From a virus (lineage: Duplodnaviria > Caudoviricetes): a stretch of DNA of 53,640 nucleotides. The stretch lies in IMG/VR virus record IMGVR_UViG_3300037962_000587, positions 1 through 53,640 of that record, one strand, 5' to 3'. The notes below the pieces were generated by a model. That model was not told where the DNA came from. It did no database searches and saw nothing but the letters and a program-made list of their open reading frames with translations. Shown here one piece after another: positions 6,427 to 53,414 of the stretch; position 1 is the stretch's first letter; every line of letters begins with the position of its first letter. Position numbers and translations under genes: made by a program.

Positions 6427-6428
6427 TA

Positions 6429-8831: not shown

Positions 8832-8837
8832 AGAAAT

Positions 8838-15822: not shown

Positions 15823-15844
15823 TAACCAACTCCTCGATTGTTCA

Positions 15845-21960: not shown

Positions 21961-22000
21961 TTGCAACTTTTCCTTTTTCAAATCATTTTGTCCTCACTCT

Positions 22001-25259: not shown

Positions 25260-25272
25260 GGTTATATTCCTT

Positions 25273-26574: not shown

Positions 26575-26585
26575 GATCTTCCTCT

Positions 26586-27128
26586 TTACCATTTTTTGCA
26601 AGACCAGTATCGAGCTTTCCATTTTGGTCCCGGAGTGTCACATCTGTGCCTAGCTCTGAAACTTTTACGTCTAGCAGGATCGTCTCTTTTAATTTCCATG
26701 TTAGGGTCGCCAAAGTTTACCTTGACTACATTACCCTTTTCATTTTTAACATAAACAGAAAACTTCTTTGGGCCATCAGGAGTCCTAAAAGGCTTATTAA
26801 GTTTTACTTTTCTACCTTGGTACTCAGAGCCTTTAGATTTATCATCATCTTTAGGTTTTTGAGCTTTCTTCCAAGACTTTGGATCTGGTCGATCAGGATC
26901 TCCCCGTTTAGCGGGCTTGTAATCGTCACCTTCCCTCTCCTTTTTCTTTCTGATGTTTTCCCAAAGTCCCGGCTTTGCTTCCGCAATATCCCAGTCTTCA
27001 GTATCTTCACCAAAATCCTCATAGTCTGCTTCCGCAGGTATTACAAAGTTATCTTCAGTAATTTCTTCTGTGTATCCACCTTCAGCACAAAATTGATTTA
27101 GGTGTTCTACATATTCTTCTTTTCTCAT
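26586..27128 (-). CDS. Modular phage protein with C-terminal DUF6321-like domain
   Basis: Acidic N-terminus, KPGLWENIRKK module, and EYQGRKVKLNKPF...FGDP...RRKSFRARHRC...RYWSC. Confidence 0.65.
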   Translation of the reverse strand: MRKEEYVEHLNQFCAEGGYTEEITEDNFVIPAEADYEDFGEDTEDWDIAEAKPGLWENIRKKKEREGDDYKPAKRGDPDRPDPKSWKKAQKPKDDDKSKGSEYQGRKVKLNKPFRTPDGPKKFSVYVKNEKGNVVKVNFGDPNMEIKRDDPARRKSFRARHRCDTPGPKWKARYWSCKKW

Positions 27129-38056: not shown

Positions 38057-40258
38057 TTACACTAGTTCACATTGACCGCCAGAACAAGCCCACTCCTGCT
38101 CCGGTTTAACATTGTTTTCTTCCTCTATGACTTGAGTATAGTCAACATCTTGGTATTCCCTATTTAGGTCAACCCACTCTTTCCAGTTGTATACGTCCTT
38201 CATACAGTAGGTTAGCTGTCTAAGATCTCCTTCAAAATACTTATCGGCAAACTTCTTACATCTATCAGACCACTCTTTCTTTCCGTTACCTTTTATTTTC
38301 GCTCCCACTCCTAGAAGTGAGTCGCAAGCGGCCCATAAGTTGTCCTCCCACAGGTTTAAGGCTACCTCTATAAGACCGCTTACAAATAGAGACGCATCAC
38401 CATAATGCCTTACCTGCTCCGTTGGTAGGTAAATTGCCGTGAACGGGGCTTGTGGGTAATCTTTATCTCCCGTGATTGGCAGGAGTGAAATTCCACAGAA
38501 AAACTTTCTATTCTTGTAGATAAACTTCTCAACCTCGTCCCACTCGTCTGGCTTGATATTTATCGTGTTGGAAACATTGTGTACCAGCCAAGGCTGCGTG
38601 CAAAGAGACTTGTTGGTTCCTGTAATTACCCAGTTTTGCTGGGTACTCTTAACATCAGACAGAAGGTCGATTGCCCCCATCTGGTTTTTTGTCTTTGCTC
38701 CCGCAGGAACCTCGATACAGAAAGCAACTACATCGTCGCTATCATTGTTTGACCAGACAGATTCTTCACATGCCCTCGGATTTATTTCTCTGAAGTAGTT
38801 GTAAATTGGTTCCATCTTGTTGGCCTGCACTCTTCTTATGTAACGCTTAGCGTGGTGAGGGTGTATGCCAGATGAAGTTCCCAGAACACAGCTACTGGTA
38901 CCTTCAGGTTTAATGCAGGTGGTTCTAGCTGCTTGATTAATGCCTATAATTTTAGCAATTCTTTTGTTCTCTGACTTGACCACCTTGGCACCCGACCTCT
39001 GTGTTTCTGGGTCTAGACATATTTCATGGTTCTCCATTATGCCGGTCATGGAGACCCCCAAGAGGGCTTCTCTGGATACGATACGTTCACTTGCTTCACC
39101 TAAATACGCGAAGCTGGCAAAACCGGCTTGAAGCGTACCTATAATCGAAGCGGCCTTGCACGCATCATAGAAGTCTTCTTCAGTCTTAACCTTGGCGCAG
39201 TTAATGGTACTTAGATTGCACGCTTGCCAACCACTCTCTCCTGTAGTCTCATCTACTGGCCACATTCCAATCTCCACGCAGGGATTGACTATTAGCTCTG
39301 TGGAGTCAGACCAAACAAAGCCCGGCTCACCAAATTCTTGTACAGATTTCATAAGCTCCGCAAACTGTTGGGCTGTAGTCTTATCTCGCAGCAATAAGGC
39401 TGAATTGTTAGACCTTCCTCTTTGAGGGTTCTCTACAAACCAAGAGCCAGTCTTAGCCTTTGCCATTTCGTCATCATCTGGGCTAAATAAACAGATGGTA
39501 GCACTTCTTCGCACACCACCTGAAATAACAGCGTCTGCACTGTGCATCACTATATCATATGCCTGAATAGGACTTAGCTTCCTTGTACCCTTTGACGCAA
39601 ACTCCATATCCTTGAGGGCTTTGTCTAGTATTTTTCTTATGTTTGATAAAGCGTTCTTTAGTGGTTCTGGGCCGGGAGCCTTGCCTCCGCTTGATCTTAG
39701 ATATGAACCAGCAGGGCGTATCTGAGAGTAATCAAAATTTACATTCTTGCCAACATACTCAGGGAATAATTCGCTTTGATCGAAATAGCTTGCCACTAAT
39801 ATTCCAACAGCATCCGACCACCCCTCTATGGTGTCGGGAATGACGTACTTTTTTGTTCCGTTCTTGTTTCTTACGAGAGGGGGTAGCTTACTTATGTGGT
39901 GCTTCTGCACAGAGAAGCCTGTTCCACAGCCGCAAAGCAGCAGGTACATACATTCTTGAAAGAATCTGAGACGGTCACAGAAAGATGTAATGCAATTGTA
40001 TATCCTTGCGTTATGTTTAAAGATTGGTTTGCCTCCAAACTGCAAGGCTCTCTGTGACCCTAAGACTTTTTTCTTACGCATCATTTCGTATGCCCACTCT
40101 ATATCCTCATGCACCTCTGGGATATCGTAGTACTTATTTAACATCATCTCTTTAACTCGGCTAACTGCCTCGTTCCAAGTTTCCCTCCTCTTCTTTTCTG
40201 GTATCCATCTAGCGTATTTAGAAACAAAGCTGTAGCTCATCAAAGATTTTATAGACAT
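38057..40258 (-). CDS. nrdJ: Class II (adenosylcobalamin-dependent) ribonucleotide reductase, monomeric RTPR type
   Basis: RRETW, YNC, GGVRRSA, NPCVEI, CNL, TCIKPEGT and C-terminal ACSGGQCEL; no nrdB in the window. Confidence 0.9.
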   Translation of the reverse strand: MSIKSLMSYSFVSKYARWIPEKKRRETWNEAVSRVKEMMLNKYYDIPEVHEDIEWAYEMMRKKKVLGSQRALQFGGKPIFKHNARIYNCITSFCDRLRFFQECMYLLLCGCGTGFSVQKHHISKLPPLVRNKNGTKKYVIPDTIEGWSDAVGILVASYFDQSELFPEYVGKNVNFDYSQIRPAGSYLRSSGGKAPGPEPLKNALSNIRKILDKALKDMEFASKGTRKLSPIQAYDIVMHSADAVISGGVRRSATICLFSPDDDEMAKAKTGSWFVENPQRGRSNNSALLLRDKTTAQQFAELMKSVQEFGEPGFVWSDSTELIVNPCVEIGMWPVDETTGESGWQACNLSTINCAKVKTEEDFYDACKAASIIGTLQAGFASFAYLGEASERIVSREALLGVSMTGIMENHEICLDPETQRSGAKVVKSENKRIAKIIGINQAARTTCIKPEGTSSCVLGTSSGIHPHHAKRYIRRVQANKMEPIYNYFREINPRACEESVWSNNDSDDVVAFCIEVPAGAKTKNQMGAIDLLSDVKSTQQNWVITGTNKSLCTQPWLVHNVSNTINIKPDEWDEVEKFIYKNRKFFCGISLLPITGDKDYPQAPFTAIYLPTEQVRHYGDASLFVSGLIEVALNLWEDNLWAACDSLLGVGAKIKGNGKKEWSDRCKKFADKYFEGDLRQLTYCMKDVYNWKEWVDLNREYQDVDYTQVIEEENNVKPEQEWACSGGQCELV

Positions 40259-40315: not shown

Positions 40316-40351
40316 CAAAAAGCCACGCCCCAATCGAGTTGGTGACGTGGC
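40316..40351 (-). terminator. Rho-independent terminator
   Basis: Minus strand GCCACGTCACCAA-CTCGA-TTGGGGCGTGGC followed by TTTTT. Confidence 0.75.
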
Positions 40352-40373
40352 ATAAGTGGCAGGCATCTAGATA

Positions 40374-40760
40374 TTATTCTTCTTCATCTTTTTCAAATAT
40401 GTTATCAAATAATTTTCTTACTATCCAGTTTATGACTGCTGAAAGCAGCACTTGTAAAATAAATGGAAAGACCCAGACGGGGAAAAATCCTTTAGCGTCT
40501 TCAGGGTCTAGTCCATCCTTGATATATTGTTTGCACTCATCCTTGAGTTGCTGTTGCCATTCCTTTGCGTTGGCTCCTGCGGGAACCCTAAAGCGATCAA
40601 CGCTTTCAAAACCCCCGCTTACTATTCTAGTCCATTCGTGCCCAAGTTGCAGACACTTTTCGGCAATTTTCCGTTCTTTGTCTTTTTTATATTTAAGAGG
40701 GATTTCTGACCTTACTTTATCTACCCCTCTTACGAAAAGCGAAGCGTGTTTTCCTGTCAT
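40374..40760 (-). CDS. Hypothetical protein with C-terminal TM helix
   Basis: FFPVWVFPFILQVLLSAVINWIV. Confidence 0.6.
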   Translation of the reverse strand: MTGKHASLFVRGVDKVRSEIPLKYKKDKERKIAEKCLQLGHEWTRIVSGGFESVDRFRVPAGANAKEWQQQLKDECKQYIKDGLDPEDAKGFFPVWVFPFILQVLLSAVINWIVRKLFDNIFEKDEEE

Positions 40761-40763
40761 AGG

Positions 40764-41051
40764 CTATAGCTCCTCATAGTCAAAGGGTACGTCTGGAAAA
40801 CCGTCTAGCTTTACTATACCTCTGTTCTGTTTAAGTGTTAGCCCCAGAACGTCAAGGGTTATGGTAAAGATTTTCTTGACTTTCACAACAGGCTTGTTGT
40901 CTATGAAGTCTACCTCGATGGTGTCTCTGTCTGGTGAGGATACTTTAATTACTGCTGGGTATTTACCTTTTATCGTATACTTATCGACTTTTAATCCATC
41001 TTCTGAGGCTAGTTTTTGCAGAACCTCAAACGCTTGAGCGAGATTATCCAT
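40764..41051 (-). CDS. Hypothetical beta-rich protein
   Basis: GGAG RBS; fills the operon. Confidence 0.6.
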   Translation of the reverse strand: MDNLAQAFEVLQKLASEDGLKVDKYTIKGKYPAVIKVSSPDRDTIEVDFIDNKPVVKVKKIFTITLDVLGLTLKQNRGIVKLDGFPDVPFDYEEL

Positions 41052-41072
41052 TGGAGGTCTCCCTTACTGTGT

Positions 41073-41477
41073 TTAACGTTTTTTACATTGACACTTTCCA
41101 TAGGCATTTTTGCAATTACAGTATGTAGTTGCTGTATCGCACCGGCACCTATGCTTATCCTCCTCGTCATTATCGTCTTCGTCTTCTTCTGGCTCTTCGT
41201 GATATGGGCATTTGGTTTGATGTCCATCCCCATGCCATATGTACCCAGTACCCTTACATGCACATTTTTCTACATCGGGGTGGGGCTTGGGTGCTATGGG
41301 TTGAGCCTCAGTCTCGTTCACCACGAAGGCTACAAAGCCCTCGTTTCTTTTTTCATCTATATTTATTTTGTTTTCTTTGATATCTGTGATACCGGATGAT
41401 ATTTTACCATATGTAAATAGAAAAATCAAGGCGCATGCGGGCACAAATAGTAAAAAATACTTGGTTTTCTGCATCAT
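41073..41477 (-). CDS. Exported/membrane-anchored Cys-rich protein
   Basis: Signal/TM N-terminus, CACKGTG...GDG...CPYH, an acidic linker and a CRC...CNC...CQC tail. Confidence 0.65.
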   Translation of the reverse strand: MMQKTKYFLLFVPACALIFLFTYGKISSGITDIKENKINIDEKRNEGFVAFVVNETEAQPIAPKPHPDVEKCACKGTGYIWHGDGHQTKCPYHEEPEEDEDDNDEEDKHRCRCDTATTYCNCKNAYGKCQCKKR

Positions 41478-42380
41478 CTATATGATCCTTGTGTTTAGCT
41501 TTCTGGGTTTAAAGCCCTCGTACCCACTAAAAGCCCAGCAGTCACCCTGACTGAGCATACGTTTTTCCACCACATCTGCATCAATCCAGAACGAACCCGT
41601 TGGCTGCTCAAGTCTTTTGGGGCCTGCGTTCCAGCTCCCCCAAGAATTAACGCATAAAACTCCGGGTCTCTTATATCCATCATCAATACCTAATAAACAC
41701 ATCTGGTGTGCCCATTCTCCTTTGGGCTTGGCGAATCCCTCCGAATCTCTTTGGGATGAGAACCCTTGGTTGCTTGCGACTGTTATGGCATACCCATTTG
41801 CTAGTAGGTCTCTCGCCTGCTCGTAGTTATCGACCCTAGATACAGTTTGTATGGGGTGTTGCTTTGATATATCTAGTAGAGTTTTTGGCACTCCGCCAGA
41901 AGGCCTGCCCCAACTTTTAGCTTTAGACCCACTGTAAGTCGTGAGGTCTACATTGCCATACTTACCTCTAGGAATAGCTCCATATTCATTGCAGTACCTA
42001 GCCGCCCATACACCATAAGCTCCATCTCCCCTTAATGTTCCGCCACCTATGATAACTCTACAGCCACCATATATATCCTCAGTTGCTGTTTCAGCTACCC
42101 ACTCCTCAAACTCTTTGTTTATGTGTATATCCACACACTTAGCAGCATCTACTGCATACGCAGCACCCTGTGATACGCAATCTCCTATTGTTTGGATTCT
42201 GTTTGGGAATTTTCCAGCAACTCTCTTGATTATATCATACAGGAGAACGGTCTTGCCTTTGCCGGAATTTTTAATAACACCCCAAGAATCTTGGAAGACT
42301 GGATGGGGCAGGGACTTCATTGCTTCCTCAACACCCTGCTCGTCTCTAACCCAACCTCCTAAGTGAGATAGGTTTTTCAT
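41478..42380 (-). CDS. Papain-like (C1/clan CA) cysteine peptidase
   Basis: QTIGDCVSQG (oxyanion Q, nucleophile C), WAHQM (His) and VNSWG (Asn); start ATG 42380 overlaps the upstream TGA. Confidence 0.85.
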   Translation of the reverse strand: MKNLSHLGGWVRDEQGVEEAMKSLPHPVFQDSWGVIKNSGKGKTVLLYDIIKRVAGKFPNRIQTIGDCVSQGAAYAVDAAKCVDIHINKEFEEWVAETATEDIYGGCRVIIGGGTLRGDGAYGVWAARYCNEYGAIPRGKYGNVDLTTYSGSKAKSWGRPSGGVPKTLLDISKQHPIQTVSRVDNYEQARDLLANGYAITVASNQGFSSQRDSEGFAKPKGEWAHQMCLLGIDDGYKRPGVLCVNSWGSWNAGPKRLEQPTGSFWIDADVVEKRMLSQGDCWAFSGYEGFKPRKLNTRII

Positions 42381-42895
42381 AGCTTTACAGCTCCAGATAG
42401 GGACTCGAATATACCTTGAAACCAATCTCGATCCTGTTGGCTATCGAGTTTTCTGGGTTCATCATATCCAGCCGCCACTAGATAACTAGAAATAGCGTCT
42501 GTAAATTCGGGGTACCGCTCACGATTCCAACCATAAGAAGTCTGAACCCTAGCTAGTATTGGATCAAACTGTGAGGTATTGTTTAGATTCTTTGCGTGCT
42601 TTAGATATTCAGCGGCACCTGATAGAAGTTTATATATTAGAATTCTGTCATCTTCGTTTTCTATTTTGTTGAATTCGCTCTCAACAAAAGCTAGAGATTC
42701 AGCGACTTCATCCACCTCGACTTCAGCCTCTTCTTCACCACTGTCTCCCCCTGTGTTAACAACTTGGTCAACACTAGGGGGTGAAAGCGGTGGATGGGTG
42801 AACTCTGATACTTTCAGCGTTCCCAATACCAAAACCAAAGCCCAAGGGATCAAAGCAGCTAAACTTACCTTTGTATCCGATAGTTTAGCCATCAT
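42377..42895 (-). CDS. N-terminally membrane-anchored helical protein
   Basis: TM SLAALIPWALVLVLGTL, a Pro/acidic linker, then a helical domain. Confidence 0.6.
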   Translation of the reverse strand: MMAKLSDTKVSLAALIPWALVLVLGTLKVSEFTHPPLSPPSVDQVVNTGGDSGEEEAEVEVDEVAESLAFVESEFNKIENEDDRILIYKLLSGAAEYLKHAKNLNNTSQFDPILARVQTSYGWNRERYPEFTDAISSYLVAAGYDEPRKLDSQQDRDWFQGIFESLSGAVKL

Positions 42896-42916
42896 TAATA
42901 GATCCTTTTTAATGGG

Positions 42917-43150
42917 TTATGCAGGCGTATCCGGCTGGTCTACAACATGGTTGTTTTTAGCCCATTTAACAGCAGCATCTAAGAGAATGCTAACGATTGG
43001 AACTACAACCATACTGGAAGCCCCAAGATCAAGTGAGGATAAGTTTCCTCCGATGTAGGTGAGACCTGCGGCTAGTCCAACTAGTAAACCGTTGATACCA
43101 ACACGTCTGAGGTCGCCCAAGTTTAAACTAAAAGCTTTTGATGGTTCCAT
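42917..43150 (-). CDS. Putative holin (2 TM, 77 aa)
   Basis: Two hydrophobic segments and a short charged C-tail (KWAKNN); start ATG 43150; context. Confidence 0.6.
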   Translation of the reverse strand: MEPSKAFSLNLGDLRRVGINGLLVGLAAGLTYIGGNLSSLDLGASSMVVVPIVSILLDAAVKWAKNNHVVDQPDTPA

Positions 43151-43154
43151 TGAC

Positions 43155-43739
43155 TTAACCTTTCTGAGAAATTTCTGACACACTTATTAAGAAACCGCCT
43201 TGTTCGTCCTCGTTGAGTTTGTAGGGAAACCCTACTATTCTCACATCCATATCATCTGATGTTTTAGTTTCCTTGTCTAATCTCCTGTTCATACTCAGGC
43301 AAGAATTCAACTCATGTATGAACTCTTCCCTTTCGTCTTCGTGAACATATGTTATCCAGTCTCTACCCTCTAGATTATTTGTAGACTGACCGGTTAATTC
43401 ATTGAAAGATTCATTTGTCCAGACTAACCTTCCTGCATTATCTGTCTCGAAGAGTGCTGTGGAATTGTAGTGCAATGCGGCTTTAGACCTTTGCTCTATT
43501 ATCTTTTGACTTTCTTCTATCCTACCACAAGTGTCTCCAAGTTTGCAGACAACATCCTTCAGGCTTCCACCACCATTCGTGGTTATCTCTTTCTTGATCG
43601 TATCTATAGATTCTGACAAATCTTCGTGTTTGTCTATAAATTTCAAAGTTGGTTTAACTACCTTAAAAAATATCCAAGAAAGAAAACCTCCCGCAAAGCT
43701 CAAGAGTGTTGTTGTTATTACTACGGTATCTGGCTCCAT
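43155..43739 (-). CDS. Membrane protein: TM, DUF2746-like NGGGSLKD coiled segment, PAS domain
   Basis: TM1, EITTNGGGSLKDVV, and PAS signature LFETDNAGRLVWTNESFNELTG...GRDWITYVHEDERE. Confidence 0.75.
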   Translation of the reverse strand: MEPDTVVITTTLLSFAGGFLSWIFFKVVKPTLKFIDKHEDLSESIDTIKKEITTNGGGSLKDVVCKLGDTCGRIEESQKIIEQRSKAALHYNSTALFETDNAGRLVWTNESFNELTGQSTNNLEGRDWITYVHEDEREEFIHELNSCLSMNRRLDKETKTSDDMDVRIVGFPYKLNEDEQGGFLISVSEISQKG

Positions 43740-43754
43740 AACCTACCCCTTCTG

Positions 43755-43790
43755 AAAAAAAACGAGAGTCCTCCCGGAGGAGGAACTCTC
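43755..43790 (-). terminator. Rho-independent terminator
   Basis: Minus strand GAGAGTTCCTCC-TCCG-GGAGGACTCTC-G followed by T8. Confidence 0.85.
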
Positions 43791-43805
43791 TCTGTAGTTG
43801 GTAGG

Positions 43806-44555
43806 TTAGTTATTTTCGCCTTCTCTGTGGTCTCTACGTTTGTAATCATCCTGCTTTGGATTCTTGCCACCGAACATGTAAGTGAGTTCGCCGGGAATAC
43901 CAAACTGTGCAGCGCCACTAGGAATAGCAGCATGATCAGTAGAGGCAGATTGGCTAATAGCGTTAGTGAAGTTAGATGCTGCGGTAGGCTCGCCACTAGC
44001 TCCAGAAATAGTTCTACCCGGAACACGGTCAGTACTTGGTACTGCCAACATATTGTATGTCATTGTTCCGTGGTTGTAGACGCTATCTACATTATGAACG
44101 CCATCATAGGTCGTGGTGGAGCTGTGCTCTCTACCGGTGCTATTTAGAAGGCTGGAGCTGTCATTGTTGACTTTTCCAGCTCCGGTAGTTCCCGCAGCTC
44201 GAAGGAGGAAGTTTCTGTCGCCAGCTCTAGCGTCTGGGAAGTAAGCGAGGCCTCCAGTGCCACCACTTTTTGCTTTTACGATACCGTCAGGATTGTCGGT
44301 TTTTTCATCGCCGTTAGCTCGATTGGTGGCCGTTTTTGCTACTACGATAGATCCGTAGTCATAGCTCTTAGCGCCATTAATGTCGTTGACATCAATGTTT
44401 TTTGTGATCTTAGAAGCGTCTCCCATACCGCCGACGTTTCCACCCTTGACCATAGAACCGCCGTCATTTGTTACGGGTGCTCCGTCGTCAGATCCGACTC
44501 TGCCGCTGTTTCCGGTGATGACTCTGAAGTCACCTGATGCTGATTGTGTAGCCAT
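43806..44555 (-). CDS. Gly/Ser/Thr/Asn-rich protein, probable virion structural protein
   Basis: Composition, strong GGGAG RBS, own promoter-like motif and terminator. Confidence 0.5.
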   Translation of the reverse strand: MATQSASGDFRVITGNSGRVGSDDGAPVTNDGGSMVKGGNVGGMGDASKITKNIDVNDINGAKSYDYGSIVVAKTATNRANGDEKTDNPDGIVKAKSGGTGGLAYFPDARAGDRNFLLRAAGTTGAGKVNNDSSSLLNSTGREHSSTTTYDGVHNVDSVYNHGTMTYNMLAVPSTDRVPGRTISGASGEPTAASNFTNAISQSASTDHAAIPSGAAQFGIPGELTYMFGGKNPKQDDYKRRDHREGENN

Positions 44556-44627
44556 AATAGACTCCCTATATAAAAAGTTAGATGTTCAAATTCCGGCTCC
44601 ACAATTTATTCCTATTTTCCTAACATT

Positions 44628-44636
44628 ATTATACAC
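44628..44636 (-). promoter_or_regulatory. GTGTATAAT promoter-like motif
   Basis: Intergenic; identical 9-mer in the 50586-50655 gap. Confidence 0.5.
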
Positions 44637-44637
44637 C

Positions 44638-45093
44638 TTATTCCATACGTTTTGCCAATTGCTGTACGGATTTTTTCACTTTTCTTCGTATTGTTTCTCT
44701 GTTGCAGCCATGCTTCTTGGCTATTTCCTTGATGGTCATGTTGTCCATTCTGTCTAGAATGAGGTCGCTGTTAGAACATTTGTCTATTTCGTCCATCAAT
44801 TCTATGGAAAAAAAGTGATCTGATTCGTCTGGGAGATTGGAATGTAGAGGTTGGTGCTTTCTTTTGTTAAACTTAACCTCTCTTATGCATTCTATCCTAA
44901 CCCCGCTATAGAGGTAAGTTGTAAACTTAGAACCCTTCTTTTCATCCCAATTAGTAAATGCTTTCCAAAGAGCATTCAACTTACAGGTGTGGATCTCGTC
45001 GTCATTAAGTTGACTTCTGAAAGATCCAGCCGCCTTGTTCATTATATTTTGTATATCCTGATTTTGCAAAGCTTCTTCAATTTGTTTATCCAT
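44638..45093 (-). CDS. Minimal sigma-70 family RNA polymerase sigma factor (regions 2 and 4)
   Basis: ALWKAFTNWDEKKGSKFTTYLY (region 2) and MTIKEIAKKHGCNRETIRRK (region 4 HTH). Confidence 0.85.
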   Translation of the reverse strand: MDKQIEEALQNQDIQNIMNKAAGSFRSQLNDDEIHTCKLNALWKAFTNWDEKKGSKFTTYLYSGVRIECIREVKFNKRKHQPLHSNLPDESDHFFSIELMDEIDKCSNSDLILDRMDNMTIKEIAKKHGCNRETIRRKVKKSVQQLAKRME

Positions 45094-45559: not shown

Positions 45560-45908
45560 CATCGGAAGGTCGAATGCAAGGTTCTTCTTTCAAAAATTCG
45601 TCTTCATTTATTTTACTGGCCAGCCTTATGGCTAGCTCTAGGAATATGTCCTCCTTCCCGCTGTCTAATAGTCCCTTTTTGGCAATCTCCAAAAGCTCTA
45701 AAAAAGAACCTTCGCTGTTAAGTGTTTCGATGAGTGTGAAGAAGTTGTTTACCGTAGATTGCTCATAATCCCTCATTTCCACATCTACATAAACTTCTCC
45801 ATCCTCCTTAACGTAATAAACAACACATGCGTCTATTAAATCTTCCTTATGCCAATCGCTTTTCTGCTCTACTGGTTCAGGCTTTTTCTTCTTGAAAAAA
45901 TTAAACAT
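45552..45908 (-). CDS. Hypothetical protein
   Basis: Coupled ORF. Confidence 0.6.
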   Translation of the reverse strand: MFNFFKKKKPEPVEQKSDWHKEDLIDACVVYYVKEDGEVYVDVEMRDYEQSTVNNFFTLIETLNSEGSFLELLEIAKKGLLDSGKEDIFLELAIRLASKINEDEFLKEEPCIRPSDVL

Positions 45909-46962
45909 TATTGATTACCTCTAATATTTTTCTAGCTGCATTTTCCCAAGTGTATTGATGGGCAGTTTCTATGCCAGCCTGATTTTTTTTCTTGTTCTTA
46001 TGCACTTCCCTCATAGCTAGGGCTATTGATGATATTTCCTCGTCGCCTATCTCAGCCCAGTTTCCGCAATTACCATGGAACCACTTGCCGTCATAGGCAA
46101 GTTCTTTGTTCTTTATTTGTACGAGTAGGGAGTTATCAGCGTTGCAGAATTCAGTGTGAGCTGAATAGTCTGTGGCTATTACCTGCTTTCCACAAGACAT
46201 CATCTCAAGAAGCTCAAGGTTCCAGCCCTCACCCCTTGATGGGAATACTCCGCAATCAGTTTGTGACATAATATTATACACCTCTTGCTGTGTCTCCTTC
46301 CTCCCTATAAATTTTATTTTTTTAGAGAGGTTGGAGCGATTGTACAAGCCAATCCATTCCGATTGTTCAGATTCACTATAGAATGGGTTATCGCACATCA
46401 TCCAGAGTTCAACATCATCTTCTTCAGTGAAAGCTTCCTCAAATGCTTTGTATAGTATGTCATGACCTTTTCTTACTTCCCATTTGCCACAATTAAAAAA
46501 GATTGTTTTGTCTGTATGTTCTTTTTCCACATATTTGAATATGTCAGAGTCAACTCCTAGTGGTATGACATCAATTCTATCTTCATCAAAATCTATGTTA
46601 CTTAGGCATACATCCTTTGCCCACTGGGAGCACACAAAGATTCTGTCGAGTGAACTTAGGTGATGTTTTTCCAGATCGTTAAAGGTGTCAAGTTCAAAAA
46701 TGGGAAATCCTATTCTTAGACCATGCCCCGCAAAACTAGACATGTCATGCTGATGCCAGATTTTTATTTGAGGTGCTTCAAAGACAGGCATCTTGCTCAT
46801 GGATATGAGTTCAGTTATGCAGCGAGCATCTTCTTCGTTGGTTACTGTTGGTTGACCTATTGGCCAAAGAGATACATCTGTAATCTGGCTTACAGACTTG
46901 CATATATTAAGACCTGTAATTCCATAGCCAAGTTGGTTGATAGGTGATATAATATTTATCAT
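45901..46962 (-). CDS. Glycosyltransferase family 4 (GT-B)
   Basis: IPLGVD, GKWEVRKGHD and GVFPSRGEGWNLELLEMMSCGKQVIAT motifs. Confidence 0.88.
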   Translation of the reverse strand: MINIISPINQLGYGITGLNICKSVSQITDVSLWPIGQPTVTNEEDARCITELISMSKMPVFEAPQIKIWHQHDMSSFAGHGLRIGFPIFELDTFNDLEKHHLSSLDRIFVCSQWAKDVCLSNIDFDEDRIDVIPLGVDSDIFKYVEKEHTDKTIFFNCGKWEVRKGHDILYKAFEEAFTEEDDVELWMMCDNPFYSESEQSEWIGLYNRSNLSKKIKFIGRKETQQEVYNIMSQTDCGVFPSRGEGWNLELLEMMSCGKQVIATDYSAHTEFCNADNSLLVQIKNKELAYDGKWFHGNCGNWAEIGDEEISSIALAMREVHKNKKKNQAGIETAHQYTWENAARKILEVINNV

Positions 46963-47777
46963 TGAACCGCCCTTCCTTTAAGTTTTTCCCAATCCCTCTC
47001 GGGTCTCACATCTATATTTGTAGACCAAGCTCCCTCTAGAGTGTTTAAGTTTAGTCCCAGCTTTTTTGCGAAGTGTATTATTCCATTTAAGTCTTTGGGA
47101 AAACAGCTACCTCCAAAGCCTAGTCTACCATCAGGGCCGGGAACGGCAAAGTGTGTGTTTCCGAGTCTATCATCGTAGGTGGCATACTCTATTACCTTAT
47201 CGTAGTCTACCCCAACAGCATCACATAGCATACAGAACTCGTTAGCTATTGATACCTTTGCTGCCAAAAAACAGTTTGTCAGATATTTTACAAACTCCGC
47301 CGTCTCTGATGTTGTCTGTACAATACTAGCTTTAGGGAAGACTTTGAGGTAGAACTGCTTCATTACTTTTGTTGCTGATGGAGTTCCGCCAAGAATGATT
47401 CTGCTGGTATTTTTGAAGTCTTCAGTAGCATTTCTCTCTAGGAGGAATTCAGGGTTGAAGACAACCCTTTGTTGGTTTTCTGAGGAAATTCTGGATGTCG
47501 TTCCCGGTGTTACGGTGGACTTAATGGCTACTATAGAGTTAGTATCTATTTCTTTACACACACTCTCAACTATTGATGTATCACACTCCCCATCTGGAGC
47601 CATAGGTGTGGGTACACATACAAAAGTTATGTCGCATCCACTAGAAGCGTCGGATATACTACTGAACTCACCGTCCTTGAACTTGTCATAAGTGTGGACA
47701 TTGTAATGCTTTGAAAAAGCCTTCCTTAACGCAGTCCCAACAAACCCTTGTCCTATTATGCATACGTTACCTGTCAT
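46959..47777 (-). CDS. ugd: UDP-glucose/GDP-mannose dehydrogenase family protein (short form)
   Basis: IGQGFVG, CVPTP, IKSTVTPGT, FNPEFL, AEFVKY and GFGGSCFPKD motifs. Confidence 0.88.
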   Translation of the reverse strand: MTGNVCIIGQGFVGTALRKAFSKHYNVHTYDKFKDGEFSSISDASSGCDITFVCVPTPMAPDGECDTSIVESVCKEIDTNSIVAIKSTVTPGTTSRISSENQQRVVFNPEFLLERNATEDFKNTSRIILGGTPSATKVMKQFYLKVFPKASIVQTTSETAEFVKYLTNCFLAAKVSIANEFCMLCDAVGVDYDKVIEYATYDDRLGNTHFAVPGPDGRLGFGGSCFPKDLNGIIHFAKKLGLNLNTLEGAWSTNIDVRPERDWEKLKGRAVQ

Positions 47778-48503
47778 CTACTTATTCCACTCCATTCTTA
47801 TGGTTTTCCTTGCCTTGCTTCCGTATAATTCTTCCATAGCGGCCTCATTCTGCTCTCCATGAAACCCGAATGAGTTATAGGTTTCCAGTTCAAGCCTGTT
47901 GTAATATTTTTCTTCCCTAGCCCATTCAACAGAAAAGCTCAAAGCTGTTCTTGGGTCTGGAAAATTGATGCCCTTGGAAAGCATGTAGCTGAAGTGGTGG
48001 ACGCATGAAAACCAGTCCTCTGGGACGGGTCTATCTGGGGGAAGTTGAGGTTCTTTATGTTGTTCGTTTGGGTTATACTTTTCAATTAGCTCCGAGGTTG
48101 CGTGTAAAAACTTCTGGCTCCGTAGGGAGAATCCTCCGTTACCAACCCTGTTTTCCCAGCCATGCCCCCAAGCCGCACCTATATAATCATAGTTAAGAAA
48201 TTTGTCGTCCCACAGGTGTGGGTTTATGACAAAGCCGTCCCACTGTACTACCAAGCAGTGCTCTGTCGATACATAATCCTTAAGTTTGGATAGGCAAAAT
48301 CTGTTGTATCCTTCCTCGTCCATTTCTGGTATATCTATCACCTCTATGCCATCCAGCACCTCGTCGGTTGGGCATAATAATTTCTTTTCAGCAAAGTCAA
48401 TACCCTCGCAGCATTTAACCATTGCCTTGAGAGCGTTGTTTGCCAGAGATCTTAAACCTGTTACTGATATGAGCGTAACCGTCTCTAGTTTTTTCATTTG
48501 CAA
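47778..48503 (-). CDS. DUF5672 family putative glycosyltransferase
   Basis: LVVQWDG, FLNYDYIGAAW, VGNGGFSLRS, PED, FSVE and FGFHG motifs. Confidence 0.8.
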   Translation of the reverse strand: MQMKKLETVTLISVTGLRSLANNALKAMVKCCEGIDFAEKKLLCPTDEVLDGIEVIDIPEMDEEGYNRFCLSKLKDYVSTEHCLVVQWDGFVINPHLWDDKFLNYDYIGAAWGHGWENRVGNGGFSLRSQKFLHATSELIEKYNPNEQHKEPQLPPDRPVPEDWFSCVHHFSYMLSKGINFPDPRTALSFSVEWAREEKYYNRLELETYNSFGFHGEQNEAAMEELYGSKARKTIRMEWNK

Positions 48504-49390
48504 TACCTGTGTGTTGAATACGACGTTATCATTGATGGGTTAAGCAGTATACTGTATCCATTCTCAACCATCTGCTTATGTAAACAGGGGTGGTCACAAT
48601 TTACAGTATATCCAGCACCCGGAGAATTGGCTGAGTACCTAAACTTCAAAAACGGCTCTCTCTTATATATAGCGAGGCCGTTAAAGTTTGAGTTGACAAG
48701 TAGAGGGGGTTCTCCCCTTACTGTTTTAAGGTGGTTGAATCCAGAGACCTCGTTAATCCTGAGATCAAAAACCTCTAGGGGTCGCATGGCCCAAGAGTCG
48801 AACATCATGTAGTATTGTTGCTCTACTTCCTCTAGACTCTTTGTGTTGGTGTACTCAGTGAGTATGCCGTAGGATGTAACACAGTCGGCAACTTCTAGAT
48901 AAGCAAAAGAATTGAGAAAGCCTTCATAAGACCACCCGCCTTTAAGGTCTAAATCTATAACAACCACATAGTCAAACTTATCAACATCTTCCATGGAAGA
49001 TATATAATCCATATAGACATTGCGACATTCTGCCAGCTCTGTGGCTCGTATTAGTTGGTCTGGGTCGTCTTTTTCTCTGTAGTTTGAGGACTCTCTTGAA
49101 TTTGATATGAGATGCAGGTTGTCATCATCCACTGATAGCTCAGCAACCGTGTTGTCGGTAGAATCGTTTTCGTATATGACTATCCTGTGTTCTTTGAAGA
49201 ACTCCGCAGTTTTATATATTCTTTCAAGGTTGAGTCTGGCAACAGGCTCTATGTTTCTGCATATACCACAAAATATAACAGAACTTTCTCCGCACAGCTC
49301 TTTTCCTTGGAGTACATACTTTTCGTATTGCTCAGAGTACTCTTCAGGTGCAGGAAAAAGATCTTCAGGAAATCTCGTATCTATTAACAT
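48494..49390 (-). CDS. CAP59/GT69-like (cryptococcal mannosyltransferase-like) glycosyltransferase
   Basis: IYENDSTDNT, RATELAECRN, VIDLDL, FDSWAMR and VNSNFNGLAIYK motifs. Confidence 0.7.
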   Translation of the reverse strand: MLIDTRFPEDLFPAPEEYSEQYEKYVLQGKELCGESSVIFCGICRNIEPVARLNLERIYKTAEFFKEHRIVIYENDSTDNTVAELSVDDDNLHLISNSRESSNYREKDDPDQLIRATELAECRNVYMDYISSMEDVDKFDYVVVIDLDLKGGWSYEGFLNSFAYLEVADCVTSYGILTEYTNTKSLEEVEQQYYMMFDSWAMRPLEVFDLRINEVSGFNHLKTVRGEPPLLVNSNFNGLAIYKREPFLKFRYSANSPGAGYTVNCDHPCLHKQMVENGYSILLNPSMITSYSTHRYCK

Positions 49391-49643
49391 ATATGGGTGT
49401 ATTCCTTCCTACGTATGCAGATATAGTATTAAACTCTATCCACTCTACAGAGTCCTCGTATGTCATTCCGGCTTCCTTCATGCAGGCCTCGATCATTTTT
49501 TCGTAATCGTATACCACCCTTCCTGAATCATGGCCATCAGCAACGCCAATAATAGCACTGTCAAAGCCATCGGCAAAAAGAAGATCATTACCAAAAACGT
49601 TAGAAAGGTGCTCTCTGACATCCTCGCTTGTTTGTCCATCCAT
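49365..49643 (-). CDS. Small conserved phage protein
   Basis: LFADGFDSAIIG...VVYD...EWIEFN..AYVG..TPI pattern commonly seen in phage genomes. Confidence 0.65.
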   Translation of the reverse strand: MDGQTSEDVREHLSNVFGNDLLFADGFDSAIIGVADGHDSGRVVYDYEKMIEACMKEAGMTYEDSVEWIEFNTISAYVGRNTPIYVNRYEIS

Positions 49644-49655
49644 AAAGGCCTCACT

Positions 49656-50585
49656 TTAAACTCCAATATAATTTTCGTAAATAAGTCCAGCCAACGCTAC
49701 GTCCTCTATAGCTAGGCCTGTCGAATCAAAAAAACTAATTCCTGTTTCGTGGTCGAAACCAAGGGGTAATCCATTTTTAACAATATGAAATAGATCCAGC
49801 ATTGATTCCTTGTTTTCGCTATGCTGTGATTCACCAGAGTGAAAAGCTTGAACCTTATCGTCAACTACAAACAGTGAACACACGTTGGCCACATTGTCCT
49901 CAAACTCTTGTTTGCCTTCAGCGTCAGCCCCTATCGCGTTTACGTGCATACCCGGCTCGATCCATGCAGCCTTAACAAAAGGTGATCTTGAAGGTGTTAG
50001 GGTTGTTAATATGTCACTGCCCCTTACGCAATCTTCAATTGTATCACATACTTCGCAGTTGTCAACATTAATATTTGAACAAAGTTCTCTAGCTTTGTCT
50101 TTATCTAGGTCAAACAGTTTTATTGTCTTGATATTTCTAACATTACAGATAGCTTCAATTTGAAAGTTGGTCTGGAAACCGCAACCTATGAATGCTGCCG
50201 TTTCAGCGTTACTATTAGAAAGATACTTAGTAGCCACGGCTGTTACTGCCGCTGTGCGGTAGGAAGTGATAAGCATTCCATCCATAACTGCCAGTGGGCG
50301 TCCATTTTCTAGGCTATTGACTATTATAGTGGCAGATACGCTTGGGCCGTGTCCACGGGCACCATTTTGCGGGAACAGAGCCGCCCATTTAATCCCAGAA
50401 TACTTCCCATGTCTGGCTGGCATTGCCCTGAAGTCGTTTCCTTCTAAACCCTCCTCTAGGTATATTTTAGGTACCATATCCCCTTTTTCGGGGTGCTTGA
50501 ATACATCCTCCATTAGCTCTATAACTTGGGGCATGTGGAGATTGTCAGCTATTTCCTTTTCCGGTATAAAGATTGGGTTGGACAT
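49656..50585 (-). CDS. Ornithine cyclodeaminase/mu-crystallin family enzyme
   Basis: FRAMPA, GIKW, ITSYRTAA, IGCGFQ, HVNAIGAD..GKQE and FDSTGLAIED motifs. Confidence 0.92.
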   Translation of the reverse strand: MSNPIFIPEKEIADNLHMPQVIELMEDVFKHPEKGDMVPKIYLEEGLEGNDFRAMPARHGKYSGIKWAALFPQNGARGHGPSVSATIIVNSLENGRPLAVMDGMLITSYRTAAVTAVATKYLSNSNAETAAFIGCGFQTNFQIEAICNVRNIKTIKLFDLDKDKARELCSNINVDNCEVCDTIEDCVRGSDILTTLTPSRSPFVKAAWIEPGMHVNAIGADAEGKQEFEDNVANVCSLFVVDDKVQAFHSGESQHSENKESMLDLFHIVKNGLPLGFDHETGISFFDSTGLAIEDVALAGLIYENYIGV

Positions 50586-50626
50586 GTCTGGCTCCTTTTG
50601 TGGTTAGAGGAATTGTAAACCTCTTA

Positions 50627-50635
50627 ATTATACAC
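50627..50635 (-). promoter_or_regulatory. GTGTATAAT promoter-like motif
   Basis: Intergenic, about 40 nt upstream of the OCD start with an AAGGAG RBS. Confidence 0.5.
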
Positions 50636-50655
50636 TATGAAGCAACTTAAATACT

Positions 50656-51573
50656 CTAAGTTACGGAAAAAGAAAACTCGTGAGGGGAGTATAGGGTTAT
50701 CAGGTTAGGGTTTAAGAATATGCTCTTTCCAGCCTTTCTCATTTCCTTGTGATAATATGCCCATTCGTTGGTTACTGTTCCGTCTTCGTTTTCTTCTGCT
50801 CCAAATTTGCACCCAATAATATCTTCAAGTTTGTATATACCCAACCCATTGAAGTTTGAGAATACTCCAAACGGTTTTTCTCCCCTTTCAAATCTGAGCA
50901 GGTTAGTAACTTCACATTTTTCTAAATTATTGTCTCCAAACTTTCTATAAGCCCAAGTGTCGTGGAACAACCTTTCAATCTCCACCTCTTTTTCTTGAGT
51001 TTCTTTGCATGACACTGTTTTTTCCCTGAAAAATAACCCGTTGGCAGTCATTGCTGACCATGCGTTTAAATCATAGGAGAAGCTGTTGAGAATTCCGTCG
51101 TAAGACCATCCCCCTTCAAGGTCTAGATCTATTACTATTACGTAATCAATCTTGTGGAAGGTGCTAAGTTTTTCAATGGCTTCTTGGCATCTGTTTCTCA
51201 ACTGTCCTAGGTATAGAGGCCTTGCAATTTCTCTAGAAATAGAGTCAAATCCCATATGCCCCGTTGGTTCCTGCATGAGAATAAAGTTGATATCTTCGGC
51301 GGCATATTTACGAAGTCTTTCTGCTGTCCCGTCGCTTGAGTCATTTTCATAAACTAGTAATTTGTACCCACCAAATAGTTGAGCGGTTTGATAGAGCCTT
51401 GATATCGTATGATCGAGGACTGGAGCTATGTTTTTGCAAAGACCTGTTATCACCACATTAAGTTCAGACGCTACCTTCATGCCAGCATAAAGACTGTTAA
51501 TGTAATCGTTTGCGTTGAGGGCGGAAAACAGAGATTCTGGAAAACGTGACCGTAGAAAGTTACTGGTTATCAT
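50656..51573 (-). CDS. CAP59/GT69-like glycosyltransferase (paralog of 48494-49390)
   Basis: VYENDSSDGT, LGQLRN, VIDLDLEGGWSYDGILNSF, FHDTWAYR and SNFNGLGIYK motifs. Confidence 0.7.
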   Translation of the reverse strand: MITSNFLRSRFPESLFSALNANDYINSLYAGMKVASELNVVITGLCKNIAPVLDHTISRLYQTAQLFGGYKLLVYENDSSDGTAERLRKYAAEDINFILMQEPTGHMGFDSISREIARPLYLGQLRNRCQEAIEKLSTFHKIDYVIVIDLDLEGGWSYDGILNSFSYDLNAWSAMTANGLFFREKTVSCKETQEKEVEIERLFHDTWAYRKFGDNNLEKCEVTNLLRFERGEKPFGVFSNFNGLGIYKLEDIIGCKFGAEENEDGTVTNEWAYYHKEMRKAGKSIFLNPNLITLYSPHEFSFSVT

Positions 51574-51661
51574 TCAACACCTCGTCGCAATAAAAGTCTA
51601 TAGTTTTCATGCCGTGGCCTCCAGCCCGAGATTTTCTATTAGGATTTGTTGTATGTTTCAT
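51560..51661 (-). pseudogene. 33-aa ORF, possible gene remnant
   Basis: MKHTTNPNRKSRAGGHGMKTIDFYCDEVLNDNQ; shares DFYC(D/E) and a 16/19-nt repeat with the end of the upstream gene. Confidence 0.3.
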
Positions 51662-52566
51662 TACACACCCATTCCCTTCTCACAATAAAAGTCGGTATTT
51701 TCTAGATTGTAATCATCAGCCCAAAAGTGGGCGTGATGTGAGTCGTAGCTTGGGGAGTGCCTTGTTCTAACGTAGTTATCGTTCAGTTTTATTACTTCTT
51801 CTCCAGAGGATTTGGTGTATATGCTATCTTCTTCGGGTTTTGTGGCGAGGTAGATGCCTCCGCACTGAACAAAACTTGTGCCTTTCAAATCTTCTCTAGG
51901 GTACTCTATATTCTCACCCCCAAGGGTTGTTTTGATTTTGTCGAGATCTTTTCTGGTTTGGCTCGATGAATATTCACCCCCTAGAGCACCAATATTTTGG
52001 ACTCTAGAAAGAATTGGATAAGCCTCAAAACGTTCCCCTCTAAAAGTATCATTTAAAGACGTGTCTTGCCCGCTCCAGTTGCTGCAAAAAGTTTTCCATC
52101 TGTCAAACCAAGTAGCAAATCCCCAAGGGGTATACCACTGTCGCATGTCTACTTTCCTCTTAGCGTCATCAGTGAGCCATTCTTCTGGGCGAGGCTGATT
52201 ACCCCTGTTGAATCCGCACACACTGAATAGCCTTTCGTCATATTTTAGTTGTTTGCAAAATTCAAAAAACCTTAACCCATCCTGTGATAGAAGTATGTCG
52301 TCCTCTACGTGTATGACGTAATCTGACTCATTGAAGCCCAGACTGAGAGCCTTTTTTTTGTTTTCCCACAGTCCTAAAAGCCTTTCGTTTATGACAAGTT
52401 CGGTATTTAATGGGTGAGACTCAATTAGATCTGGTATGATATTGTTTACTGGCTCAACGCAGCAAATTACCCTGTAGTCTTCTATACCTTCACATTTAGC
52501 TAGGTGATCTAGCATTAACTTAGTGCAGGTTGGCCTGTTGTAGTGTGTACTTGTTATGATTTTCAT
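51661..52566 (-). CDS. GT-A fold glycosyltransferase
   Basis: HYNRP, VIHVEDD, PWGFATWFDRW and SRVQNIG motifs; start ATG 52566 overlaps the upstream TGA. Confidence 0.8.
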   Translation of the reverse strand: MKIITSTHYNRPTCTKLMLDHLAKCEGIEDYRVICCVEPVNNIIPDLIESHPLNTELVINERLLGLWENKKKALSLGFNESDYVIHVEDDILLSQDGLRFFEFCKQLKYDERLFSVCGFNRGNQPRPEEWLTDDAKRKVDMRQWYTPWGFATWFDRWKTFCSNWSGQDTSLNDTFRGERFEAYPILSRVQNIGALGGEYSSSQTRKDLDKIKTTLGGENIEYPREDLKGTSFVQCGGIYLATKPEEDSIYTKSSGEEVIKLNDNYVRTRHSPSYDSHHAHFWADDYNLENTDFYCEKGMGV

Positions 52567-53414
52567 GGTGAAAATTTCTCTATCTGGTGCAGCAGTGTTC
52601 TCCACGGGGTGTGGGTGATGGGTTCGAGACCAGCCGCCGTTTTCTTCTTTGGGGGTGGGTCTGGGCTGTGTCCATGCTGAACAGTACATCTATCACATGG
52701 ATAATATTTTTTCCTTTTCCCTAGCATGAGATCGTCTCTCATGGATAAAAAGTTGCTGCTTTTCAAAATCTCAATCAAGCTGTGTTCCTTAATGTTTCCA
52801 AATTTATTTTTCTTTAGCCAGTCCCAGCAACACAATTGAATATCACCGCTGCTTGTTATTACTAGTTGGTCTGTTATTCTGGGGCACCCAACCGTAATGT
52901 CGTTAGGCTCATCTGTATAAATTGACATACGCGAGTCTAAGTTGCCGCCAAATATATCGTATACCACATCGGGCCATGATTTCCTCAAGTTGTCGGCTAA
53001 TTCTCTGTACTTTATAAGTTCTTCGTCAGTATATGCGGTTATGTGAAGGTGGGTTAAGCCCAAGCCTAGTAGCCTCTTGGCCTTTTCCTCGCTTAAAAGC
53101 CTTCCATTAGTCCAAATTTGAGTTTGAGCTTGGGGGCATAGTTTAATGTGCATCTCCACTATGTCGAATATTCTTTTGTCAACCATTGGGTCAGAATAGT
53201 GATGAAATCCAGTTCGCCCCTTGTAGCCGTGCTCGCTTAGCTCTTTTACTAGATTTGTTATTACGTCAAAAGGGAGTACGAAGTTGCCAAAAACTTCGCT
53301 CCTCGCTACGATAGGACATTCGTTGCAATGGTCTTTTTCCATATTGCATCGACTGATAGTTTCGATGTTTATAGACTTAAGTTCACTAATATATTGTTCT
53401 GGGGTAGTTTTCAT
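52563..53414 (-). CDS. Radical SAM protein with SPASM/twitch domain
   Basis: ETISRCNMEKDHCNECP, TNG, and C...GDIQLCCWD...GNI...CDRC. Confidence 0.85.
   Translation of the reverse strand: MKTTPEQYISELKSINIETISRCNMEKDHCNECPIVARSEVFGNFVLPFDVITNLVKELSEHGYKGRTGFHHYSDPMVDKRIFDIVEMHIKLCPQAQTQIWTNGRLLSEEKAKRLLGLGLTHLHITAYTDEELIKYRELADNLRKSWPDVVYDIFGGNLDSRMSIYTDEPNDITVGCPRITDQLVITSSGDIQLCCWDWLKKNKFGNIKEHSLIEILKSSNFLSMRDDLMLGKRKKYYPCDRCTVQHGHSPDPPPKKKTAAGLEPITHTPWRTLLHQIEKFSP

Follow-up and report, generated by a model that had tools for sequence, protein, structure and literature searches.

A terminator-bounded gene block built around a papain-like cysteine peptidase, a candidate lysis cassette of uncultured aquatic phages

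The viral record IMGVR_UViG_3300037962_000587 (Duplodnaviria; Caudoviricetes) raises the question of whether seven genes that include no classical endolysin could open the host cell at the end of infection. The window analysed here is the whole IMG/VR virus record (53,640 bp, estimated to be 34% complete), and the seven genes, termed g1 to g7, lie co-directionally on its minus strand at 40374-43739, between two intrinsic terminators. An earlier reading of the DNA letters alone (the original prediction) had taken this block for a lysis unit. We found that g4 has the fold and the catalytic residues of the papain family, that a g3-g4-g5 core is kept in distant phages, and that no known wall-hydrolase family turned up in the searches described below. 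On balance, we lean towards reading the block as a phage lysis (envelope-opening) cassette in which the papain-family cysteine peptidase g4, rather than a peptidoglycan hydrolase, would be the enzyme; we infer lysis, as well as the substrate and what g1, g2, g3 and g5-g7 do.

The original prediction of a papain-like peptidase was borne out by the catalytic residues and the fold of g4. In an alignment of 36 homologues, Cys68, His225 and Trp247 are invariant and Gln63, Asn245 and Ser246 are at least 90% conserved, which makes up the papain catalytic set including Asn-Ser-Trp. In the AlphaFold 2 (AF2) model (predicted local distance difference test 91.6, predicted template modelling score 0.91), the helix of residues 68-86 starts at the catalytic Cys68, and Gln63, the oxyanion-hole residue, lies a few residues before it. 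A Foldseek search with the model returned xylellain (3OIS, E 4.7e-11) as the top match, together with procathepsin B (E 1e-8), cathepsin K, papain and Legionella Lpg2622; xylellain, procathepsin B, cathepsin K and papain were all matched at probability 1.00. The profile of the 36 sequences searched against the PDB also found xylellain (3OIS, E 2.3e-4), with cathepsins weaker. At the level of sequence families, g4 gave no Pfam match at E ≤ 0.1, Peptidase_C1 included, and no PHROG family. Taken together, g4 is best called a distant C1-like family (clan CA) that has the catalytic residues and the papain fold and lies outside the Pfam Peptidase_C1 model, with predicted peptidase activity. The structural alignment to procathepsin B1 spans 305 columns (template modelling score 0.63), and since alignments to zymogens cover nearly the whole of g4, its first ~60 residues, which overlay the zymogen prosegments, may act as a prosegment.

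The g4 family comprises 383 clusters at 90% identity among near-length candidates and 1,638 representatives (E ≤ 0.001) in a metagenome library clustered at 50% identity, while 50,697 deposited phage records gave no match. Identity to g4 is 59-96% among the 120 relatives listed. The longest open reading frame (ORF) of g4 in the window starts from a TTG at 42425, and the relatives align from its residue 16. An N-terminal hydrophobic segment was found in 17 of the 150 best family representatives, some of them with twin-arginine-like signals, which points to action outside the cytoplasm. As a separate observation, 42 of these 150 representatives are at least 420 amino acids (aa) long, and nine of the ten long homologues scanned (among P0121-P0258) contain intein, Hint or LAGLIDADG domains. 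Of the 21 mapped intein junctions, 13 fall at Cys68, where the intein immediately precedes the Cys, 6 at His225 and 2 near Asn245. Inteins at all three catalytic residues are unusual for a putative lysis enzyme.

A conventional lysis enzyme was sought within the block, elsewhere in the window and in related genomes. The Pfam and PHROG scans of g1-g7 found no glycosidase, amidase, muramidase, M15/M23 or known wall-endopeptidase domain, in agreement with the original prediction, which had noted no amidase, muramidase or M15/M23 motif in the block. Nor did a canonical endolysin come to light outside the block. There was no wall hydrolase among the Pfam matches of 57 window ORFs, or among the PHROG matches of 20 window ORFs, ten of them without a Pfam scan. 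Thirteen wall-hydrolase or wall-binding Pfam families (lysozyme, Amidase_2, Amidase_3, SLT, M15_3, M15_4, M23, NlpC/P60, CHAP, GH19, GH108, Hydrolase_2 and PG_binding_1) were all absent at E ≤ 0.01 from genomes G000-G003, which include the 98%-complete relative G001, with controls that were silent for GH19 and GH108. In addition, five small phages that carry the core, four of them 100% complete, had no lysozyme or Amidase_2. One of the four, G1240 (35,575 bp, complete with terminal repeats), gave 23 Pfam families from 119 ORFs, among them terminase, portal, S78 prohead protease, capsid and integrase, and no wall hydrolase. A role of g4 as a prohead protease was considered and rejected, as this complete phage has an S78 protease of its own and g4 homologues are signal-anchored.

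The core g3-g4-g5 is kept across phages of 42-73% guanine-plus-cytosine (GC) content. On a 62% GC contig (locus L018), a g4 homologue with a hydrophobic N-terminus is preceded by an N-anchored helical protein and surrounded by small membrane or Cys-rich proteins. Another 38 distant viral loci (52-73% GC) were collected, whereas a search for related loci that started from the homologue P0145 found none. Of the 38, 33 extend at least 400 nt beyond g4 on its upstream side, and in 32 of these 33 the next gene on that side is g3-like. In 32 of 37 loci, the N-terminus of g4 carries a hydrophobic segment. Planctomycete proviruses have, upstream of g4, a gene homologous to the window g3 (hhalign probability 90%, E 1.6e-6, 93 columns). 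The g5 position also recurs: in a 67%-GC siphovirus, the small exported protein beside g4 has a knuckle 59% identical to that of g5 over 32 residues (E 2e-10), and the provirus type has, in place of a knuckle protein, a thioredoxin with a signal (E 1.6e-7) as the partner. Taken together, a recurrent core with a signal-anchored g4 is what would be expected of an envelope-directed lysis module. The synteny that the original prediction had set as a test holds widely for g3-g4-g5, whereas g6 and g7 are found only in nearer relatives.

The g4 family profile was also run against bacterial genomes. Among 401 Planctomycetota genomes there were 8 matches, 6 of them at E ≤ 1.4e-59, and four of the matches lie on contigs of 63,808 to 6,125,480 bp. 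Among 401 Bacteroidota genomes there were 2 strong matches and 6 at E ~1e-6, and among 401 genomes of the class to which a SAR202-labelled metagenome-assembled genome (MAG) belongs, the only match was that MAG itself. A 1.8-Mb Planctomycetota contig (L042) contains a provirus that encodes, one after another, a 217-aa protein, a g3-like protein with a signal, a g4 with an N-terminal transmembrane (TM) segment and two TM proteins; the genes for the large terminase and the portal follow ~2 kb after the end of the cassette. At L061 the cassette is flanked by the portal and major head genes. In 13 loci, the 145 neighbour ORFs matched 113 families; head and packaging functions dominate the 25 families listed, which include no endolysin, holin or spanin family. 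A different setting was seen at L049/L050 (G1004:C1, ~2,740,299-2,741,201), where a lone signal-less g4 homologue of 46% identity stands in a Bacteroidota chromosome beside genes that by eye resemble a dehydrogenase, an agmatine deiminase and a nitrilase. No cassette or phage genes were found within 40 kb of it.

The anatomy of the block in the window is given in Table 1, together with the occurrence of the genes in the 16 loci of the marine lineage (L002-L017), several of which are near-duplicates and in which most misses fall at locus ends. The genes are tightly packed: g3 and g4 share an ATGA overlap, g4 directly adjoins g5, and gaps of 3-21 nt lie between the others. Kyte-Doolittle analysis assigned hydrophobic segments to g1, g2, g3, g5 and g7, five of the seven proteins as originally predicted; g4 and g6 have none.

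Table 1. Features of the block in the window and occurrence of its genes in the marine-lineage loci
Feature	Position	Strand	Description	Marine-lineage loci (of 16)
Upstream intrinsic terminator (predicted)	43755..43790	-	hairpin -19.6 kcal/mol and T8; ends monocistronic 249-aa gene	
g1	43155..43739	-	194 aa; N-terminal TM 6-24, linker, PAS 85-191; membrane-anchored PAS protein	9; also contig C7
g2	42917..43183	-	88 aa from GTG; small holin-like membrane protein	12; also contig C7
g3	42377..42895	-	172 aa; N-terminal signal anchor 9-27, acidic linker, five-helix domain ~55-170	14
g4	41478..42380	-	300 aa; papain-family (C1-like) cysteine peptidase, no signal sequence	
g5	41073..41477	-	134 aa; exported or anchored Cys-rich protein, hydrophobic 8-26, 10 Cys	15
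g6	40764..41051	-	95 aa; soluble, conserved C-terminal PDIPF-type motif; no Pfam or PHROG family	14; conserved only in nearer relatives
g7	40374..40760	-	128 aa; C-terminal TM 92-118	8, 3 of these weakly; conserved only in nearer relatives
Downstream intrinsic terminator (predicted)	40316..40351	-	hairpin -18.8 kcal/mol and T5; precedes class II ribonucleotide reductase gene	

The whole coding strand was scanned for terminators, defined as a T-run of at least 5 with a hairpin of -12 kcal/mol or lower, located in the 42 nt before the run and closing no more than 4 nt from it. Only two matches were found in 53,640 nt, and they are exactly the two sites that flank the block, as the original prediction had placed them. 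The upstream hairpin has a z of -2.70 (3 of 200 shuffles fold as well) and the downstream one a z of -3.59 (0 of 200). In both, the hairpin is directly followed by the T-run, so both are of the intrinsic (rho-independent) type, with termination predicted. The g1 ATG (43739) is 15 nt past the last T of the upstream run, the distance noted earlier, and no sigma-70-like promoter site was found between that run and the ATG. Late, low-level expression by read-through from the preceding gene, as the original prediction had it, is a hypothesis. A terminator stands directly before g1 in all eight scanned relatives that have g1, and the stem sequences are unrelated; therefore the upstream terminator was selected for and is not there by chance. 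The downstream terminator is kept in L002-L005 and absent in L007 and in the related contig C7. As to the genes on either side, the 249-aa protein encoded at 43806-44555 (-), which ends at the upstream terminator, is rich in Gly, Ser, Thr and Asn, has no Cys and belongs to no family; relatives and C7 conserve its C-terminal end, and the gene is probably highly expressed. Downstream of the block, the reductase (38057-40258) is of class II (B12-type) here and in L002-L009 (78-99% identity); those of L011 and L012 share merely 42% identity with it, and C7 has at 41324-45023 what appear, read by eye from the sequence, to be the large and small subunits of a class I reductase.

Among the proteins around g4, g1 matched Pfam PAS_9 (E 5.1e-7, 30.4 bits against a cut-off of 27) and, also above cut-off, PAS (26.9 bits, cut-off 22.6), PAS_4 (25.4, cut-off 23.1) and PAS_3, which confirms the membrane PAS protein of the original prediction. 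A stop codon separates g1 from g2 in L003 and L010. For g2, an alternative ATG at 43150 gives 77 aa, and the alignment of relatives begins about there, so the g2 start is probably this ATG. The protein has one strong TM segment (54-72), a weaker Gly/Ala-rich hydrophobic stretch before it and a charged C-terminal tail. Set against the features of class II or pinholin-type holins, it offers 77-88 aa, one strong and one weak hydrophobic stretch and the charged tail; it matched no Pfam, PHROG or holin family. The holin role given to it in the original prediction, as a two-TM protein, is suggested by size and hydrophobicity alone.

The AF2 model of g3 has five helices, with means of 10-residue blocks of ~88-95 over 61-110 and 131-170, 85 for 171-172 and 62-75 over 111-130. 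Possible fold relatives of g3 (best Foldseek E 0.2; best VIA Z 6.1, to a Cmr5 helical bundle with a root-mean-square deviation of 3.4 Å over 94 residues) were discarded, as these matches are within helical-bundle noise, and a search of the ESM Atlas with g3 gave no usable match. The predicted g3-g4 complex scored 0.02 (mark 0.32), which counts neither for nor against an interaction. The window g5 has the knuckle CxCxGxG...HGDGH...C and no Pfam match; it lacks a thioredoxin domain and has a Cys-rich tail instead. Its homologues in most relatives are longer and combine the Cys knuckle with a signal peptide and a thioredoxin domain, which has a site of the CxxC type. This site is present in the homologues of L007, L012-L017 and C7 and reads WC[GAL]PC in all but L016; the L007 homologue matched Pfam Thioredoxin (E 6.8e-9). 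In L004 and L005, g5 and g6 form one stop-free ORF.

The contig C7 (152,655 bp) comes from a related phage and was binned in a SAR202 MAG. There, a 220-aa Gly/Ala/Thr-rich gene is followed by g1, g2, g4 and g5, three other small membrane genes and the apparent class I reductase, so that the order g1-g2-g4-g5 is kept at 38-52% identity. Relatives of the window phage span 121,807-162,690 bp, and the largest, G001 (162,690 bp), is 98% complete; therefore the window is a fragment of a phage of ~160 kb. This stretch occurs in marine and estuary metagenomes from several studies, with no RNA data set among those listed, and a DNA similarity search against deposited phages matched nothing to the window. 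Almost all window genes are on the minus strand, and the tRNA scan found 0 tRNA genes. The window encodes a class II ribonucleotide reductase, a small sigma-70-like factor and replication genes (a DnaE-type polymerase in two ORFs, a DnaB-like helicase and a UvsX-like recombinase), as well as the families SSB, primase-type Toprim, PhoH and dUTPase.

How these proteins could open a cell can be put as follows. The g4 peptidase would build up in the cytoplasm, maybe kept latent by its prosegment-like first ~60 residues. At the end of infection, g2 would permeabilise the inner membrane and release g4, and the membrane-anchored cytoplasmic PAS protein g1 may act as the gate of g2. The released g4, with the exported helical g3 and the exported Cys-knuckle g5, would then cut a load-bearing component of the envelope, which could be either proteins (of the wall or tether kind) or the peptide moiety of peptidoglycan. 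Elsewhere, the signal-anchored g4 of many phages would need no large-hole holin. The module may thus exist in two forms, a soluble g4 with a small holin-like protein as here and a signal-anchored g4 as in most small phages, by analogy with the pattern of canonical and signal-anchor-release (SAR) endolysins. The predicted lysis unit is thus supported in part: the genes form a conserved unit, the papain-type peptidase is real and the block holds no amidase, muramidase or M15/M23 domain, whereas the putative holin found no family match.

Several points weigh against a lysis cassette. The window g4 has no signal sequence, and the block lies in a replication and nucleotide region, between the sigma-factor gene and the ribonucleotide reductase, not beside structural genes. 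C1 peptidases cleave ordinary L-peptide bonds in proteins, and we know of no C1 peptidase that acts as an endolysin. The g2 protein, as said, belongs to no holin family. In C7, nothing stands at the g3 position, and g4 shares only 38% identity. The silence of Pfam is compatible with a divergent or novel wall hydrolase, and two of the 13 family searches had silent controls; G001, moreover, is a relative (72% identity in g4) and not the window phage itself, whose record is ~34% complete. The lone Bacteroidota homologue among metabolic genes means that the g4 family is not exclusively lytic. Finally, planctomycetes have peptidoglycan sacculi that are sensitive to lysozyme, according to PMC4432640, and therefore a wall-cutting activity would still be needed if planctomycetes are the hosts.

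The host itself was approached from two sides. A planctomycete host, as the original prediction had it, is supported for the g4 family by the chromosomal proviruses (strong matches in 6 of 401 Planctomycetota genomes), whereas the MAG labels of the window phage's own lineage (SAR202, Crocinitomicaceae and Aureispira) conflict. These labels, and Pirellulaceae as a fourth, were considered as a guide to the host, and none was accepted. The 1.4-Mb SAR202-labelled MAG (G004) holds a 64,029-bp contig that is ~98% identical to the window in g4, as well as the 152,655-bp contig of the related phage. Two phage contigs in one such MAG reflect either co-binning by composition or a real host signal, and the link is that of one bin. 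FtsW/RodA was found in 0 of 31 relatives of this MAG, and SAR202 has been reported to lack peptidoglycan (PMC11994032). SAR202 would thus be a peptidoglycan-free host, through a link that rests on one bin. For reference, the phage contigs of G004 are C13 and C7, and its associated loci are L019 and L023-L032.

If the block does not serve lysis, it might remodel the envelope or strip surface proteins, in superinfection exclusion, receptor destruction or early envelope conditioning. We consider this unlikely. It would suit the position of the window block among early- or middle-type genes (sigma factor, ribonucleotide reductase and replication module) and the presence of the cassette in integrated proviruses, where an exported protease expressed by the lysogen could exclude other phages; exported thioredoxin and PAS proteins are also more typical of envelope homeostasis and sensing than of lysis. 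However, the complete or near-complete genomes that bear the cassette have no other candidate lytic enzyme, small phages carry it among late head and packaging genes, and the split between a soluble g4 with a small membrane protein and a signal-anchored g4 mirrors that of endolysin systems.

Less probable still is an intracellular protease that breaks down host proteins for amino acids, assists host takeover or processes phage proteins, with the membrane neighbours unrelated to it. The coupling of the exported g3 to g4 by the ATGA overlap, its place directly upstream in 32 of 33 distant loci and the signal anchor of g4 in 32 of 37 all speak against a cytoplasmic site of action, and the prohead-protease variant is excluded for G1240 by its own S78 protease. 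The window g4 without a signal sequence, the lone cytoplasmic-type homologue in the Bacteroidota chromosome and the high conservation of g4 (the 59-96% identity among the 120 relatives listed) would fit such an enzyme, as would the inteins at its catalytic residues, a placement typical of core enzymes. That the seven genes form no functional unit, the terminators merely enclosing unrelated accessory genes, is very improbable, although g7 and g1 are missing from part of the relatives, the downstream terminator is absent in L007 and C7, and C7 has different small membrane genes after g5. The spacing is tight and genes overlap, C7 keeps the order g1-g2-g4-g5 at 38-52% identity, g3-g4-g5 is kept from 42 to 73% GC, and g5 and g6 are one ORF in L004 and L005.

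Within the lysis reading that we favour, a bolder version is possible, although we doubt it: a reductive-proteolytic lysis aimed at a protein wall layer and not at peptidoglycan, which would be a new and widespread class in uncultured aquatic phages. The exported thioredoxin or Cys-knuckle g5 would open disulfide-linked Cys-rich wall proteins, and g4, positioned or activated by g3, would then digest them, and the moment of release would be set by the membrane PAS protein, which would sense how the redox or energy state of the dying cell stands. Because a thiol-redox partner recurs beside g4, such an attack on wall proteins is attractive, if unproven. Possible targets would be the cysteine-rich YTV proteins, which PMC12673574 reports from planctomycete wall preparations, or the S-layer of peptidoglycan-free hosts such as SAR202. 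A literature search at the level of titles and listings returned no description of a papain-type phage lysis enzyme. To our knowledge, every well-studied tailed phage of walled bacteria escapes by means of a peptidoglycan hydrolase, and here a very large protein family would stand in that place. If g4 is the lytic enzyme, it would represent a new class of endolysin with built-in redox partners and a marker for phages of poorly cultured hosts (Planctomycetota, perhaps others), and the long-argued make-up of planctomycete-type envelopes would become testable with a defined set of enzymes. The failure of automatic annotation to detect lysis genes in these phages would be explained as well.

Some further observations on the window are recorded here. 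The DnaE-type polymerase is split between ORFs 20317-21981 and 18040-19638 (-), with a 225-aa ORF (19613-20290) between them, and C7 has the same order at 65-69% identity. The adjacent ORFs 23973-25259 and 25273-26622 (-), of 428 and 449 aa and without a PHROG family, both match the single C7 ORF 57265-58527, at 35% and 82% identity, which suggests a tandem duplication at 23973-26622 in the window phage. The regions 1-17630 and 45901-53414 (-) hold a large glycan and nonulosonic-acid set with NeuB, UDP-GlcNAc 2-epimerase, a GDP-mannose-dehydratase-type epimerase, UDP-glucose dehydrogenase and several glycosyltransferases (these are family counts, most matches not being placed on single ORFs). 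An ornithine cyclodeaminase-family gene and a SPASM-domain gene were also found within these regions.

Among known systems, the holin-endolysin(-spanin) cassettes of tailed phages of the lambda S-R-Rz/Rz1 type are the natural comparison. Like them, the window has a small membrane protein beside a soluble, signal-less hydrolase and tightly packed small exported or anchored proteins, and the planctomycete provirus cassette lies ~2 kb upstream of the terminase gene; lambda lysis genes likewise adjoin packaging genes. Unlike them, the window enzyme is of the C1 papain type and not a glycosidase, amidase or known wall endopeptidase, and the set includes a PAS protein in the window and a thioredoxin domain in relatives. 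An assignment of g3 and g5 as inner and outer spanins was rejected: the g3 ectodomain is a compact five-helix bundle and not a coiled coil, and g5 has no conserved lipobox, a lipobox-like Cys being present in only a few g3 or g5 homologues and not in the window proteins.

The SAR-endolysin and pinholin systems (phage 21, P1 Lyz) resemble the cassette in other respects, as most distant g4 homologues (32 of 37 loci) have an N-terminal signal anchor and the first hydrophobic stretch of g2 is Gly/Ala-rich like a SAR or pinholin helix. P1 Lyz is activated by thiol-disulfide exchange, and a thiol-dependent enzyme beside thiol-redox partners may be an analogous arrangement. The window g4 differs in having no hydrophobic anchor segment and in its enzyme family. 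By fold and by its catalytic Gln, Cys, His and Asn-Ser-Trp, g4 is like xylellain (3OIS) and the cathepsin B-type C1A peptidases; it differs from these in its identity of only 12-18%, in being phage-encoded and in its pairing with g3 and g5. Viral thiol peptidases that cut wall peptides are known, namely the CHAP and NlpC/P60 endolysin domains and the pseudomurein endoisopeptidases PeiW and PeiP of methanogen phages. Unlike the CHAP and NlpC/P60 lysins, of which these genomes gave no match, g4 has true C1 proteases as its nearest structures. The Pei enzymes, set beside g4 here by description only, provide a precedent for the lysis of non-murein walls.

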